This document shows positions 38,460-48,686 of a stretch of DNA of 64,000 nucleotides, one piece after another. The stretch lies in the sequence record ON528727. The stretch is one strand, 5' to 3'. A program made the translations under genes and the position numbers. The notes below the pieces were generated by a model, which saw nothing but the letters and a program-made list of their open reading frames with translations, searched no databases and was not told the origin of the DNA. The number at the start of each line of letters is the position of its first letter. Position 1 is the first letter of the stretch. This DNA comes from Shigella phage ESh17.

Positions 38460-39168
<709 letters not shown>

Positions 39169-39175
<7 letters not shown>

Positions 39176-39198
39176 CGCTGATGAGGTAGTGATACTAT
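39169..39198 (+). promoter_or_regulatory. early promoter (GTTTAC -35, N18, TACTAT -10) enclosed in a stem-loop
   Basis: GTTTAC / TGATACTAT; inverted repeat gatgag...ctcatc around the -10. Confidence 0.6.
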
Positions 39199-39228: not shown

Positions 39229-39486
39229 ATGAAAACTTTCAAAGAGTTTGCTACAAAAACTACTATCACCGAATCTTCCCACGGTATGGAAGTAAAGCTT
39301 GGAATGGCTTTAGCTGAAGCTGAGCGTCTTTTCTCTCGTATTAAAGAACTTGCTGCTGCAGTCGATCCTTCATCTTTTAAAGGAGACCAAACTAAAGTTA
39401 AAGCGCTTTTAGCATTATGCTCTGATGCAGGCGAAATCGCTAAGAACGGTTCTAAGATGAAGAAACGATTAGAAGATTTAAAATAA
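39229..39486 (+). CDS. internal-protein-like head protein with capsid-targeting-sequence-like N-terminus, 85 aa (ipI position)
   Basis: begins MKTFKEFATKTTITE; position between 57B and the tRNA region. Confidence 0.6.
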   Translation: MKTFKEFATKTTITESSHGMEVKLGMALAEAERLFSRIKELAAAVDPSSFKGDQTKVKALLALCSDAGEIAKNGSKMKKRLEDLK

Positions 39487-39505
39487 TTTCACAAAGTTGT
39501 TTACA
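39475..39505 (+). repeat. 31-bp perfect direct repeat, copy 2
   Basis: identical to 39145-39175. Confidence 0.9.
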
Positions 39506-39528
39506 TAGGGTTTTAGTTGTGATACTAT
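39499..39528 (+). promoter_or_regulatory. early promoter, duplicate of the one at 39169
   Basis: GTTTAC / TGATACTAT; stem atagggt...accctat. Confidence 0.6.
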
Positions 39529-41502: not shown

Positions 41503-41575
41503 TGGGAATTAGCCAAGTTGGTAAGGCACTGGATTTTGATTCCAGGATGCAAAGGTTCGAGTCCTTTATTCCCAG
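41503..41575 (+). tRNA. tRNA-Gln (anticodon UUG)
   Basis: cloverleaf folded by hand; 7-bp acceptor tgggaat/attccca; anticodon loop ttTTGat; GGTTCGAGTCC T-arm. Confidence 0.8.
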
Positions 41576-41576
41576 C

Positions 41577-41663
41577 GCGAGAATGGTCAAATTGGTAAAG
41601 GCACAGCACTTAAAATGCTGCGGAATGATTTCCTTGTGGGTTCGAGTCCCACTTCTCGCACCA
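41577..41663 (+). tRNA. tRNA-Leu (UAA), type II with long variable arm
   Basis: acceptor gcgagaa/ttctcgc; loop ctTAAaa; encoded CCA. Confidence 0.8.
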
Positions 41664-41668
41664 AATTT

Positions 41669-41742
<74 letters not shown>

Positions 41743-41752
41743 ATTTAATTTA

Positions 41753-41826
41753 CTCCGTGTAGCTCAGTTTGGTAGAGCGCCTGATTTGGGATCAGGAGGT
41801 CCAAGGTTCAAATCCTTGTATGGAGA
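41753..41826 (+). tRNA. tRNA-Pro (UGG)
   Basis: acceptor ctccgtg/tatggag; loop ttTGGga. Confidence 0.8.
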
Positions 41827-41828
41827 CT

Positions 41829-41918
41829 GGAGGCGTGGCAGAGTGGTTTAATGCACCGGTCTTGAAAACCGGCAGTCGCTCCGGCGACTCATAGGTTCAA
41901 ATCCTATCGCCTCCGCCA
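41829..41918 (+). tRNA. tRNA-Ser (UGA), type II
   Basis: acceptor ggaggcg/cgcctcc; loop ctTGAaa; long variable arm; encoded CCA. Confidence 0.8.
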
Positions 41919-41924
41919 GTTTTT

Positions 41925-42000
41925 GCTGATTTAGCTCAGTAGGTAGAGCAACTCACTTGTAATGAGAAGGTCGGCGGTTCGATTCCGTCAATCAGCACCA
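41925..42000 (+). tRNA. tRNA-Thr (UGU)
   Basis: acceptor gctgatt/aatcagc; loop ctTGTaa; encoded CCA. Confidence 0.8.
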
Positions 42001-42001
42001 A

Positions 42002-42076
42002 GGCCCTGTAGCTGGAAGGTTCAAGCAAGCGACTCATAATCGCCAGATGGTGGTTCAATTCCACCCAGGGCCACCA
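42002..42076 (+). tRNA. tRNA with CAU anticodon (Ile2 lysidine-type or Met)
   Basis: acceptor ggccctg/cagggcc; loop ctCATaa; encoded CCA. Confidence 0.75.
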
Positions 42077-42088
42077 AATTATGAATTA

Positions 42089-42175
42089 GGGGAGTTATCC
42101 CGTAGAGGTAGCGGTGTGGACTGTAAATCCATTGTCATTGCGACTCGGGTGGTTCGACTCCATCACTCCCCACCA
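42089..42175 (+). tRNA. tRNA-Tyr-like (GUA), type II, with irregular acceptor/D-arm junction
   Basis: perfect 7-bp acceptor ggggagt/actcccc, anticodon stem-loop gtgga-ctGTAaa-tccat, long variable arm, T-arm ggtgg-ttcgact-ccatc, CCA; but 4 nt rather than 2 between acceptor and D-stem. Confidence 0.5.
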
Positions 42176-42179
42176 ATTT

Positions 42180-42254
42180 GGATGTGTAGCTCAGTGGTAG
42201 AGCAGTTGACTGTTAATCAATTGGTCCATGGTTCGAATCCATGCATGTCCGCCA
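42180..42254 (+). tRNA. tRNA-Asn (GUU)
   Basis: acceptor ggatgtg/catgtcc; D-arm gctc-agtggta-gagc; loop ctGTTaa; encoded CCA. Confidence 0.75.
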
Positions 42255-42368
42255 AATTTGTGACAACTGTCACATTAATATCTACTTGACGCGATTATAA
42301 GGGTTGAACTGATCACTCTTCTCTTAATTTCGTGTGAAGACATCTTGATTGTTGGAGTAGGTATTAAT

Positions 42369-42444
42369 GTGGCCGTAGTTCAGTTGGTAGAACTCGAGAT
42401 TGTGATTCTCGTAGTCATGGGTTCGACTCCCATCGGTCACCCCA
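42369..42444 (+). tRNA. tRNA-His (GUG); no encoded G-1
   Basis: acceptor gtggccg/cggtcac; loop ttGTGat; discriminator C; encoded CCA. Confidence 0.7.
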
Positions 42445-42448
42445 ATTA

Positions 42449-42524
42449 CGGGGCATAGCTCAGAAGGAAGAGCAAGGACCTTCTAAGTCCTAGGTCGTAG
42501 GTTCGATCCCTACTGCCTCGACCA
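42449..42524 (+). tRNA. tRNA-Arg (UCU)
   Basis: acceptor cggggca/tgcctcg; loop ctTCTaa; encoded CCA. Confidence 0.8.
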
Positions 42525-42542: not shown

Positions 42543-42893
42543 ATGAAAGGTAATGTTTATTTAGTAGTTCATGATTTAACATTCTATTTTAATCATAATG
42601 ATACTGTTATTTCTGAACGTGTAATTAATTTACTTTATCAGCATGCAGATTATGTTTATGTTGAAAATGAATTTGGCCATTGGCAATTTCTCAAAAATCG
42701 TTCATTTGGTTTAGATGGTTACGAATACTTTGATCGTAAAGACCTTTTAGATACAATTCCATTATCTACACAATATCAAAATCATAAGTCTTTACATAAA
42801 TGCCGGCTAATTCGAAATGCTGAATCTGCGTATGAAGCAATTGATTTATGGCGTAAACGCCGTGAACAAATTGATGCTTTAAAAGAATATTAA
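42543..42893 (+). CDS. hypothetical protein, 116 aa
   Basis: ATG after GAGGAAA directly downstream of tRNA-Arg. Confidence 0.5.
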   Translation: MKGNVYLVVHDLTFYFNHNDTVISERVINLLYQHADYVYVENEFGHWQFLKNRSFGLDGYEYFDRKDLLDTIPLSTQYQNHKSLHKCRLIRNAESAYEAIDLWRKRREQIDALKEY

Positions 42894-42894
42894 G

Positions 42895-43200
42895 AAACCG
42901 GGTCGCTACCGGTAAGTCGTCGGACTGATGTTCCCTGAGTAAGGAATTGCGTTAATAATCTTTGCGTTTATTGATGCCCTCTTACATCACAGCAGAAACG
43001 GCGCACCGAATTATCGATTCGAGGAAATATCTTTGCCGTAAGCCGAGTAGCGTTTTTGACGGAACGTTCGGATATGGTCGAGATATGGCCTTTTAAAAAT
43101 ATTGAGTAGCGTCAACTGCTTAATAACCGGGTTCGAATCCCGGCGTTTCGTACAAACACTTGCCTTAGCAGGTGGAACCCCGACAAGGTTGCCGCAAGGC
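42895..43200 (+). ncRNA. candidate stable small RNA region, GC-elevated and structured, with a tRNA-like T-arm (possibly analogous to T4 species RNAs C/D)
   Basis: no ORF; palindromic hairpin at 42897-42913; ccggg-ttcgaat-cccgg T-arm at 43127-43143 with 7-bp acceptor-like pairing 43060-43066/43144-43150. Confidence 0.3.
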
Positions 43201-43230
43201 TTAGCCCCAGCCGAAAGGTTGGGGCTTTTT
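43201..43230 (+). terminator. intrinsic terminator (GAAA tetraloop hairpin plus T5), copy 1
   Basis: ttagccccagccgaaaggttggggcttttt. Confidence 0.8.
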
Positions 43231-43232
43231 AG

Positions 43233-43240
43233 TATAAATA
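43233..43240 (+). promoter_or_regulatory. late promoter TATAAATA for the internal-protein-like gene at 43277
   Basis: exact TATAAATA 37 nt upstream of the ATG. Confidence 0.55.
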
Positions 43241-43276
43241 AGTATATTAAATCTACAAATTAAAACAGGAAATAAG

Positions 43277-43750
43277 ATGAAATCATATACTCAATTTTTA
43301 AATGAAGCGGTGTTAAATGAAGCGTCTAGCACCGAAATTCAAGCTGTCGCAAAAGCAGCCATTGCAGCGGGTAAATATTCCTATAAAGATGCTTCTGATG
43401 AATCACGATTCCAATTTGCTCGCGACATGAAAGCAGAAGGATTTACGGGGAATGCTGTTAGTATGGCCTGGAAAAGTTTAGTTGCTACTGGCGCTGCTTT
43501 TGCAAAGGCTTCGGGTAAACCTGCTCCTAAAGCAGATCCTAAAGTCACACAAGAGAAAAATATCGTTAAAGGAATTATCTCCAAATATGAAGCTATCCTT
43601 AAAGAGCTTTTAGTAATCAAAACTGAAGGCCAAAAGCTAGCTCGTGCTTATAGTTTCAAAGATAACCCACATGCTCACTCTCTTGAGTATGTTGAAGACA
43701 TCCAAAAAATTATTAAAGACCGCATTTGGTCTGCTAAACAAATCAAATAA
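43277..43750 (+). CDS. internal-protein-like protein with variant capsid-targeting-sequence N-terminus, 157 aa
   Basis: begins MKSYTQFLNEA; Ala/Lys-rich; own late promoter; flanked by duplicated terminators. Confidence 0.55.
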   Translation: MKSYTQFLNEAVLNEASSTEIQAVAKAAIAAGKYSYKDASDESRFQFARDMKAEGFTGNAVSMAWKSLVATGAAFAKASGKPAPKADPKVTQEKNIVKGIISKYEAILKELLVIKTEGQKLARAYSFKDNPHAHSLEYVEDIQKIIKDRIWSAKQIK

Positions 43751-43755
43751 CATTC

Positions 43756-43785
43756 TTAGCCCTAGCCGAAAGGTTGGGGCTTTTT
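43756..43785 (+). terminator. intrinsic terminator, copy 2 (29/30 identical to 43201-43230)
   Basis: ttagccctagccgaaaggttggggcttttt. Confidence 0.8.
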
Positions 43786-43918
43786 GGTATCTAGGCCTTT
43801 CCAGGCCTCTCTAGACATCATTTAGTTTCTACCCTTTATAATATATTATCCTATCCTTTGATTTCCCCTCCCTGCCCTAGAATTCCCCAAAACTTTTTAA
43901 AAATTTTTTCACAAAACG

Positions 43919-43948
43919 GTTTACATCCTTGTCCTTCCATGGTACTAT
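43919..43948 (+). promoter_or_regulatory. early promoter with conserved leader tggtactatacaactatcaactac
   Basis: GTTTAC, 18-nt spacer, TACTAT. Confidence 0.6.
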
Positions 43949-43991: not shown

Positions 43992-44255
43992 ATGGATAAT
44001 TACGGTGAGCTGTTCAACTTCTTTATGAAATGTGTTTCAGAAGATTTCGGTCGTACAGTGAATGATATTAAAGTTATCGGTCCTGATCATCCGTTGTTTG
44101 AAACTTACGCAGTAATGGGTAATGAAGATGGTCAGTGGTATACTGTAAAGGTTGTGATTAACATGTTCACTGCTGAAAGTTATGTTAAACTGTCTTCTAA
44201 AGTTTATCATGATAATGATGAAATTGCTGAAGAATATTTCAATAATATGAAATAA
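43992..44255 (+). CDS. hypothetical acidic protein, 87 aa
   Basis: start at ATG 43992 after GGAGA; ORF-track start 43929 translates through the promoter. Confidence 0.5.
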   Translation: MDNYGELFNFFMKCVSEDFGRTVNDIKVIGPDHPLFETYAVMGNEDGQWYTVKVVINMFTAESYVKLSSKVYHDNDEIAEEYFNNMK

Positions 44256-48212: not shown

Positions 48213-48686
48213 ATGAAAACATATCAAGAATTTATTACTGAAGCAGCTATTAATTCTCAAATTATTGCTGAATCTTTTACTGATCTTTTGAAATTTAAAA
48301 AAGGTCAAAAAATCACTGCTGTATTGGATGATGGTACAGAAGTTGAGATGGATGTACAGGGATATAATTATGCAGTAGATGGAAAACTGTATAATAAATC
48401 TCATGCTAAATTTGATTCATTTGACGACTTTGTTAATACAGTTGAAGATGAAAAAACTCGTAGATCCATTGCAACTGGCGACGCTAAGGTTCTTATGGCA
48501 CATGGCCATGAACGCATCCGCGCTAAACAGAATAAAATGGGCGAAGATAATTTTGCATTAGTTGGTTATCAATCTGGTAAACAAACTTATGGCTATCAAC
48601 GTACTGCTACCATGTATAACAAAAATGGTAAAATTGCCTTTGTGAATAGTAAAGGTTCTATTCAGTACGTTAAATCGTTCAAATAA
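48213..48686 (+). CDS. internal protein (ipIII/ipII family) with canonical capsid targeting sequence, 157 aa
   Basis: begins MKTYQEFITE, matching the recalled T4 CTS MKTYQEFIAE; position downstream of e. Confidence 0.7.
   Translation: MKTYQEFITEAAINSQIIAESFTDLLKFKKGQKITAVLDDGTEVEMDVQGYNYAVDGKLYNKSHAKFDSFDDFVNTVEDEKTRRSIATGDAKVLMAHGHERIRAKQNKMGEDNFALVGYQSGKQTYGYQRTATMYNKNGKIAFVNSKGSIQYVKSFK

Follow-up and report, generated by a model that had tools for sequence, protein, structure and literature searches.

What kind of gene lies between the two nearly identical terminators downstream of the tRNA genes of Shigella phage ESh17, and how did it come to be there? We addressed this question in a DNA stretch of 64,000 nt (sequence record ON528727), the whole of which is called the window below. 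At 100% identity, the window corresponds to Shigella phage SHBML-50-1 (KX130864, a T4-like Tequatrovirus), its + strand being the minus strand of KX130864. The gene is an open reading frame (ORF) of 157 amino acids (aa), referred to with its flanking signals as cassette A, in a slot between rnaC and e.8. Our analysis makes it probable that the ORF encodes an unnamed internal head protein (Ip) of the T-even type and that its cassette, transcribed late, represents a third Ip locus. The parts of the cassette, all on the + strand, are as follows.

43200..43235, +, upstream copy of a 36-nt repeat, an intrinsic terminator (stem-loop 43203-43226 plus T5); T4 has a single hairpin
43233..43240, +, TATAAATA, an exact match to the T4 late-promoter (gp55) motif, overlapping the final 3 nt of the repeat
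43267..43272, +, Shine-Dalgarno-like AGGAAA, 4 nt before the ATG, conserved in orthologous cassettes
43277..43750, +, the 157-aa ORF of cassette A (PHROG 2280), predicted internal head protein precursor, starting MKSYTQFLNEA
43277..43321, +, predicted propeptide, with the capsid targeting sequence (CTS) MKSYTQFLNE (aa 1-10) including Y4, F7, L8 and E10
43298..43324, +, 15-bp tandem duplication, TTAAATGAAGCG at spacing 15, doubling the cleavage context; polymorphic among phages
43755..43790, +, downstream copy of the 36-nt repeat, the terminator of the cassette itself (stem-loop 43758-43781 plus T5)

An earlier note on this DNA, written from the sequence, had described two near-identical 30-bp terminators around a late promoter and a 157-aa ORF, forming a self-contained cassette. 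This description was confirmed in all its parts: the 30-mers at 43201-43230 and 43756-43785 are identical at 29 of 30 positions and both are hairpin-like, the late-promoter motif and the ORF lie where they had been placed, and the order terminator, late promoter, gene, terminator makes cassette A a self-contained module.

The evidence for an Ip begins with the leader of the protein. Mutations in IPIII assigned residues 4 and 7 to targeting and residues 8 and 10 to processing, and the prohead protease gp21 cuts after L/I-x-E (PMC9026906). All four mapped residues are retained in the ORF, Y4 and F7 for targeting and L8 and E10 for cleavage, and the motif M..[YF]..F[LIV].E was found in only 2 of the 576 ATG-initiated frames of at least 40 aa in the window, namely this ORF and the internal virion protein at 48213; the CTS-type leader in the L-x-E context of gp21, also claimed in the earlier note, was thus supported. 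A BLOSUM scan against the T4 CTS ranked the ipIII-locus gene, this gene and the ipI-locus gene as the top three ORFs of the window, with a wide gap below them. The pattern M..[FY]..F[LV].E, with a small residue after it, is retained in every divergent member of PHROG 2280.

This leader bears directly on the explanation that the product stays in the cytoplasm as an unpackaged late protein, its likeness to a CTS having arisen by recombination with ip genes or by chance. Such an explanation would suit a family that has no Ip annotation apart from one UniRef name. However, the leader is the most conserved feature among very divergent family members, with the functionally mapped positions intact, and a chance match is unlikely, as the other of the two matching frames is a PHROG-annotated Ip. 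We give an unpackaged cytoplasmic protein a very slim chance.

Concerning the processing of the putative Ip, two gp21-type sites are predicted from a duplicated AVLNE, both of the form LNE followed by A, one after E10 and one after E15, and E15 is invariant in the family alignments. The underlying sequence TTAAATGAAGCG is single in SP21535, JK45 and RB27, and the leader of SP21535 and JK45 consists of the plain 10 residues.

Purifying selection was detected on the ORF, with a ratio of nonsynonymous to synonymous substitution (dN/dS) of 0.06-0.10 against three orthologues, and tblastn found it in 511 of 50,697 phage records; phages FelixPlatter (of the BASEL collection) and KIT03 encode an identical protein. 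Two ORFs on the opposite strand (79 aa, 43381-43620; 38 aa, 43637-43753) were rejected as candidates, since the selection signal and the conservation belong to the + frame. PHROG 2280, which also takes in two further cassettes of the same slot (B and C, see below) and a Klebsiella-phage variant, is a small family, with 13 clusters at 50% identity among 1.84 billion proteins. In GenBank, all 60 sampled annotations read hypothetical or phage protein, and the sole Ip label was that of one UniRef entry, a Klebsiella-phage homologue named 'Internal head protein'.

The composition of the protein points in the same direction as its leader. For the full protein, the isoelectric point (pI) is 9.5, and Lys and Ala account for 13% and 16% of the residues. 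The predicted mature form is Cys-free with a pI of 9.6, 14% Lys and 17% Ala; the corresponding values for T4 IPI*, IPII* and IPIII*, also Cys-free, are 9.0-9.65, 13-16% and 13-17%. Among the 72 window ORFs of at least 100 aa, for which the median pI is 5.5, this ORF alone has both Lys and Ala at 12% or more. The AlphaFold2 (AF2) model, of moderate quality (pLDDT 72), consists of a three-helix N-terminal domain (aa 18-75), a disordered Pro/Lys-rich linker (aa 76-87) and a helical hairpin (aa 88-154).

A basic, Lys-rich protein might also be packaged as a head-filling or charge-neutralising component, which would be CTS-targeted, cleaved and injected, and whose main use would be that of a DNA counter-ion or packing aid rather than an action on a specific host target. 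The T4 Ips are similarly Lys-rich and basic, and their lysines contact DNA phosphates (PMC3012670); further, the model shows a simple helical fold of a generic kind, for which nothing resembling an enzyme or an inhibitor was matched, and the gene is dispensable, being absent from T4 and frameshifted or truncated in some phages. Nevertheless, all three T4 Ips were formerly seen as fillers and proved to be specific GmrSD inhibitors, and the combination of strong allele divergence, purifying selection and presence/absence turnover suits an arms-race effector better than a counter-ion. A filler is regarded here as unlikely.

Several results weigh against the assignment to the Ips and should be considered together. 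The 157-aa protein had no Pfam, NCBIfam or PDB sequence match; its sole family match, PHROG 2280, is labelled 'unknown function'; and no homology to the named Ip families, including Ip1, Ip2 and Ip3, was found beyond the leader. Foldseek comparison of the AF2 model with PDB and BFVD returned its own family and meaningless helical matches (e.g., ferritin, E >0.7), and, as no fold match was informative, the target of the protein is a guess. The virion proteome of phage SH7, which carries the cassette, obtained by liquid chromatography-mass spectrometry, lists 13 proteins with no Ip of any kind and is uninformative. Ten other ip genes tried against additional GmrSD systems showed no inhibition (PMC12373910), so that the designation Ip does not guarantee a GmrSD target. 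The late-promoter motif by itself is not above chance, with 6 occurrences on the + strand against an expectation of 6.8 from base composition; what lends it weight is its place directly after the T-run, a position conserved across genera. Lastly, a third L-x-E (LKE, aa 108-110) lies inside the mature part, and a cut at this site, if it happened, would fragment the protein like a core protein.

The internal LKE would fit an accessory of the prohead core or scaffold like gp67 or gp68, that is, a protein that is targeted to the core, chopped by gp21 and expelled, and is then neither found in virions nor injected. The same leader logic, the late signals and an all-helical model like that of scaffold proteins are consistent with such a role. 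However, T4, T2 and T6 assemble normal heads without this dispensable gene, the LKE is situated in the middle of a long predicted helix, and the composition matches that of the retained Ips. T4 IPs carry exactly one [LI]-x-E each, although not every such motif gets cut. Based on this evidence, we consider a core accessory very unlikely and retain the Ip as the preferred reading.

The second part of the question, how the gene came to occupy this site, concerns the repeats. The full direct repeat measures 36 nt (43200-43235 and 43755-43790, spacing 555) with 34 of 36 positions identical, and each copy is an intrinsic terminator with a 10-bp stem, a GAAA loop and a T5 run. The folding energies were -20.6 kcal/mol (z -4.0) for the upstream hairpin and -18.3 kcal/mol (z -3.7) for the downstream hairpin, and the sole stem difference, a change from G-C to G-U, preserves the pairing. 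The hairpin 28-mer was found at two places in the whole 64 kb, both of them the cassette repeats, and nowhere in shuffled sequence. The upstream terminator probably ends the tRNA/rnaC transcript and shields the cassette from early transcription, and no early-type promoter was found between the upstream hairpin and the ATG. The same position after the T-run is held by TATAAATA in RB27, fPS-90, sutha, slur03, pSs-1, KpV477, p000v and the JS98-type loci, and by AATAAATA in its place in JK45, AV110 and ABTNLsp5.

The conserved anchors of the slot were identified as follows.

approximately 42890-43007, rnaD homologue, from alignment to annotated T4 rnaD
43014..43152, +, rnaC (species 1 RNA) homologue, the conserved upstream anchor, from alignment to annotated T4 rnaC
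43920..43948, +, early-type promoter of e.8 (TTTACA-17-TACTAT with TG), annotated as a predicted early promoter in fPS-90
43992-44255, e.8 ORF, with its promoter the conserved downstream anchor

Alignment with T4 showed nearly identical flanks, one hairpin and no ORF at this site; T4 lacks exactly the 555 bp between the repeats. Its junction consists of exactly one hybrid hairpin copy, so that the edges of the insertion/deletion fall inside the repeat, and the downstream repeat, within which the T4 junction lies, is taken as the right-hand recombination boundary of the cassette. The empty junction was recovered as a single uninterrupted match in T2, T6 and RB3, and PST has no ORF at the slot. 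By a rough estimate, the slot was empty in about 9 of the 60 listed records, which were the classifiable rows of a BLAST search with a 116-nt junction query after split pieces had been joined.

It may be argued that the duplicated hairpins are terminators that look alike through functional constraint only, with no role in recombination, and that the difference from T4 is an unrelated deletion. Terminators are indeed constrained, GC-rich stems with a GAAA loop can converge, and in Jiaodavirus, p000v and Dhakavirus the sequences of the two hairpins around the slot show no relationship. Against constraint alone stand the single hybrid copy at the T4 junction and the extension of the repeat past the stem into a 5' flank CTTA and a 3' tail GTAT, positions without a role in termination. 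In addition, two variable, non-essential stem positions match between the copies within a genome (AG/AG, GA/GA, TT/TT) in eight of the nine genomes that have both flanking hairpins of the same family, and this within-genome co-variation argues for exchange between copies rather than mere constraint. In the JS98-type loci, the composite of hairpin, T-run and TATAAATA is repeated at every module boundary. We consider constraint alone distinctly improbable, and the repeats are treated below as recombination boundaries.

Across relatives, the slot holds at least four cassette types (A, B, C and a membrane-protein gene) in at least eight arrangements. The non-empty states seen were A, B, A plus B, C, the membrane-protein gene, the membrane-protein gene plus C, A plus the membrane-protein gene, and A plus a remnant of the membrane-protein gene. 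Cassettes A, B and C each have a capsid-targeting-like leader. In fPS-90, A is followed by B (187 aa, starting MKTYAEFLTEAAKLP), which was found in 165 phage records and stands alone in IME340 and, in frameshifted form, in RB69. BLAST found the first 11 residues as the only part common to A and B. A likeness of the C-terminal half of B to the Klebsiella variant was not backed by BLASTP (E >1), though PHROG 2280 groups both. Cassette C was found in the Mosigvirus p000v (208 aa, starting MYTFNEFLAETEVITEA), and the slot of the Gaprivervirus RZ contains the membrane-protein gene (PHROG 2143), which has no CTS. The IMG/VR loci anchored on e.8 added three of these states, namely membrane-protein gene plus C (JS98, IME281), A plus membrane-protein gene, and A beside a deletion remnant of the membrane-protein gene.

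Side observations were made on these cassettes. The predicted membrane protein of 184 aa (MKLLKYLSWILLVPLDF...) occurs in the same slot in Gaprivervirus and Dhakavirus and is preceded by a hairpin and TATAAATC in RZ and by a hairpin and TATAAATA in the IME281-type locus. Only its first 5 and last few codons remain in IME341, a deletion scar. The duplicated leader MKTYNEFLNESVLNEA is joined to a C-type body in JS98 and IME281, and this junction suggests recombination within leader-coding DNA. Interrupted copies are also present, with an in-frame TAA in KpV477, the frameshifted B of RB69 and 93-97-aa truncations in T4_ev240 and G28. An accessory gene that can be dispensed with would account for these, and so would errors in the sequencing of homopolymer runs.

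Comparison with RB27 gave 95-100% identity in both flanks and 62-85% inside, with breaks at approximately 43230 and 43700, and dS within the ORF was 1.1. Therefore, whole alleles have been swapped via flanking homology. Genes of PHROG 2280 are found at the same site in four genera, Tequatrovirus, Mosigvirus, Dhakavirus and Jiaodavirus, and for this reason occupancy of the slot looks ancestral. The empty slot of T4, T2 and T6 was probably produced by deletion through recombination between the repeats. The proposal of the earlier note that the gene is modular and recombination-delivered was accordingly borne out as to modules bounded by recombination, on the grounds of the 555-bp gap in T4, the other cassettes and the drop in identity to RB27; 'delivered' was not supported in that wording, as the site is occupied in four genera. 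As for the flanking repeats, they are near-identical only in Tequatrovirus and some Mosigvirus, and the hairpins differ in KpV477, p000v and ABTNLsp5.

Packaging, cleavage and injection of the 157-aa protein, as well as its target, are steps that we infer, and the following mechanism is proposed. From the motifs and their conservation, the upstream hairpin would halt early and middle transcription from the tRNA/rnaC operon, and the gene would be read only late, from TATAAATA to the second hairpin. By the experimentally defined determinants, MKSYTQFLNE would act as the CTS that brings the precursor into the prohead scaffolding core. There, gp21 is expected to cut after Glu10 and/or Glu15 (L-N-E before A), giving a basic product of about 142 aa (about 15.5 kDa) that would stay with the DNA and be injected along with it. 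In the next cell, the protein could act before any phage gene expression, most likely, if the analogy with Ip1, Ip2 and Ip3 applies, by neutralising a host defence. As for the turnover of the slot, whose comparative pattern was observed directly, the repeated hairpins, the late promoter and the conserved leader may serve the phage recombination system as short homologies. The outcomes would be deletion of the cassette (T4, T2, T6), replacement by diverged alleles, and combination with the sister cassettes B, C and the membrane-protein gene.

A further proposal, which we regard as possible but doubtful, is that the rnaC-e.8 site is an integron-like array of late virion cargo, in which the terminator and late-promoter repeats and the CTS-coding leader would be the recombination joints. 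The members of PHROG 2280 would then be diversifying injected effectors, of which this one may disable a defence other than the GmrSD subtypes of Ip1-3, and T2, T4 and T6 would have lost the class.

Concerning the function of Ips, they are described as diverse defence counter-measures having only a conserved CTS in common (PMC3012670), and Ip1, Ip2 and Ip3 each inhibit a distinct type IV restriction enzyme GmrSD (PMC12373910). More than 30 Ip variants are known, with promoter/stem-loop elements at two variable Ip loci that have been tied to shuffling (PMC2839356; PMC4122927). Cassette A agrees with the T-even Ips in a CTS some 10 aa long that follows the pattern Y/F4, F7, L/I8, E10 and carries a gp21 site (L/I-x-E before A), in a mature part that is small, basic, Lys/Ala-rich and Cys-free, and in being non-essential and patchy among close relatives, with mature parts unrelated between families. 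It differs from them in having no sequence similarity to named Ips beyond the leader, in its position at rnaC-e.8 rather than at 57B-trna.4 or e-denV with absence from T2, T4 and T6, and in its predicted two-domain, all-helical structure with a Pro/Lys linker, in contrast to the alpha/beta fold of IPI*. An Ip4+ series of T-even phages and IpIV-VI of phage PST were reportedly described by Repoila et al. in 1994. The PHROG 2280 family may already be among the variants counted by Repoila in 1994 or Comeau in 2007.

For CTS-bearing injected proteins of Tequatrovirus, a function has precedent only in the GmrSD inhibitors Ip1*, Ip2 and Ip3, each directed at one GmrSD subtype (PMC12373910). Cassette A shows neither homology nor a structural match to them. 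A role of the 157-aa protein in type IV restriction would be an analogy with these proteins, and by the same analogy it is a reasonable candidate anti-defence protein.

The organisation of the slot resembles the PeSL cassettes (Arbiol et al. 2010; Comeau et al. 2014) in that non-essential ORFs of a hyperplastic region are bordered by repeats of a stem-loop and a promoter, at which insertions, deletions and replacements begin and end. However, cassette A has the late promoter TATAAATA where the PeSL cassettes have a sigma-70-like or T4 early one; in SHBML-50-1 the hairpin alone is duplicated, with the promoter only after the upstream copy; and the stem is GC-rich with a GNRA loop, whereas the stem-loops at the Ip loci are AT-rich (PMC2839356). 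The cassette also shares features with morons, having its own promoter and terminator, lying between genes that are adjacent in the close relative T4, and being dispensable. The definition of morons comes from temperate lambdoid phages, in which the prophage is the usual source of their expression. By contrast, the cassette A unit belongs to a virulent phage; it would be expressed late, and its product is probably virion cargo.

That the three T4 internal proteins are all injected inhibitors, each of a different GmrSD enzyme, has been known since 2025, while many other Ips have no known target. PHROG 2280 is present in most sampled Tequatrovirus genomes, yet it is absent from T2, T4 and T6 and 'hypothetical' almost everywhere. 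Its recognition as a probable Ip would add a third Ip locus, and what is additional to the known picture is this locus, a terminator/late-promoter repeat instead of an early-promoter repeat, and a family nearly unlabelled as Ip. The PeSL idea of regulatory-repeat shuffling is thereby extended to a terminator/late-promoter composite. Natural controls are available as isogenic-like phages with the slot empty or filled with A, B, A plus B or other combinations. The gene is also a concrete candidate for host-range differences among near-identical T4-like phages, which are of interest for phage therapy and defence-system screens. The finding is relevant to the study of Ips and type IV restriction and would be unsurprising to a T4 specialist.

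The other two CTS genes of the window lie at the classical Ip loci. The ipI-locus gene (39229-39486, 85 aa, MKTFKEFATKTTITE..., PHROG 3499 'internal head protein') has on either side a copy of GATTTAAAATAATTTCACAAAGTTGTTTACA, a direct repeat of about 31 nt (39146-39176 and 39477-39507). This repeat comprises the final codons (DLK*) of the preceding gene and of the Ip gene together with an early-type promoter; the unit is a classical early-promoter-based Ip cassette, in contrast to the terminator-based cassette A. Directly after the lysozyme gene e, a 157-aa ORF at 48213-48686 starts MKTYQEFITEAAINS and belongs to PHROG 3155 'internal virion protein'. The promoter in front of it is of the early type and not TATAAATA, and in length and position it equals the gene annotated ipIV in PST. 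Among the window ORFs between e and approximately 49400, none resembles T4 ipII or ipIII.

Upstream, the cassette directly follows a cluster of 11 tRNA genes (41503-42524) and then the rnaD and rnaC homologues (approximately 42890-43152). An Rfam search of the window matched tRNAs only, there being no Rfam family for rnaC or rnaD. The cluster includes Met(CAT), Tyr, Asn and His, compared with 8 genes in T4, and the homing-endonuclease gene segB, which interrupts the T4 cluster, is absent from it. The Tyr gene is a pseudo-tRNA according to GenBank, with an Rfam score of 30.2 bits against a threshold of 29. Between tRNA-Arg and rnaD lies an ORF of 116 aa (42543-42893; PHROG 3355, unknown function); a similar-sized ORF occupies this place in JK45 and RB69, whereas tRNA-Arg directly abuts rnaD in T4. 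The 47 nt at 43153-43199, from the annotated 3' end of rnaC to the terminator, are conserved, and pairing is possible within them (CTTGCCTTAGCAGG...CCGCAAGG). On the other side of the cassette, a small palindrome, CTAGGCCTTTCCAGGCC (stem GGCCT/AGGCC), follows right after the second terminator at 43791-43807 and is kept in T4 and most relatives.

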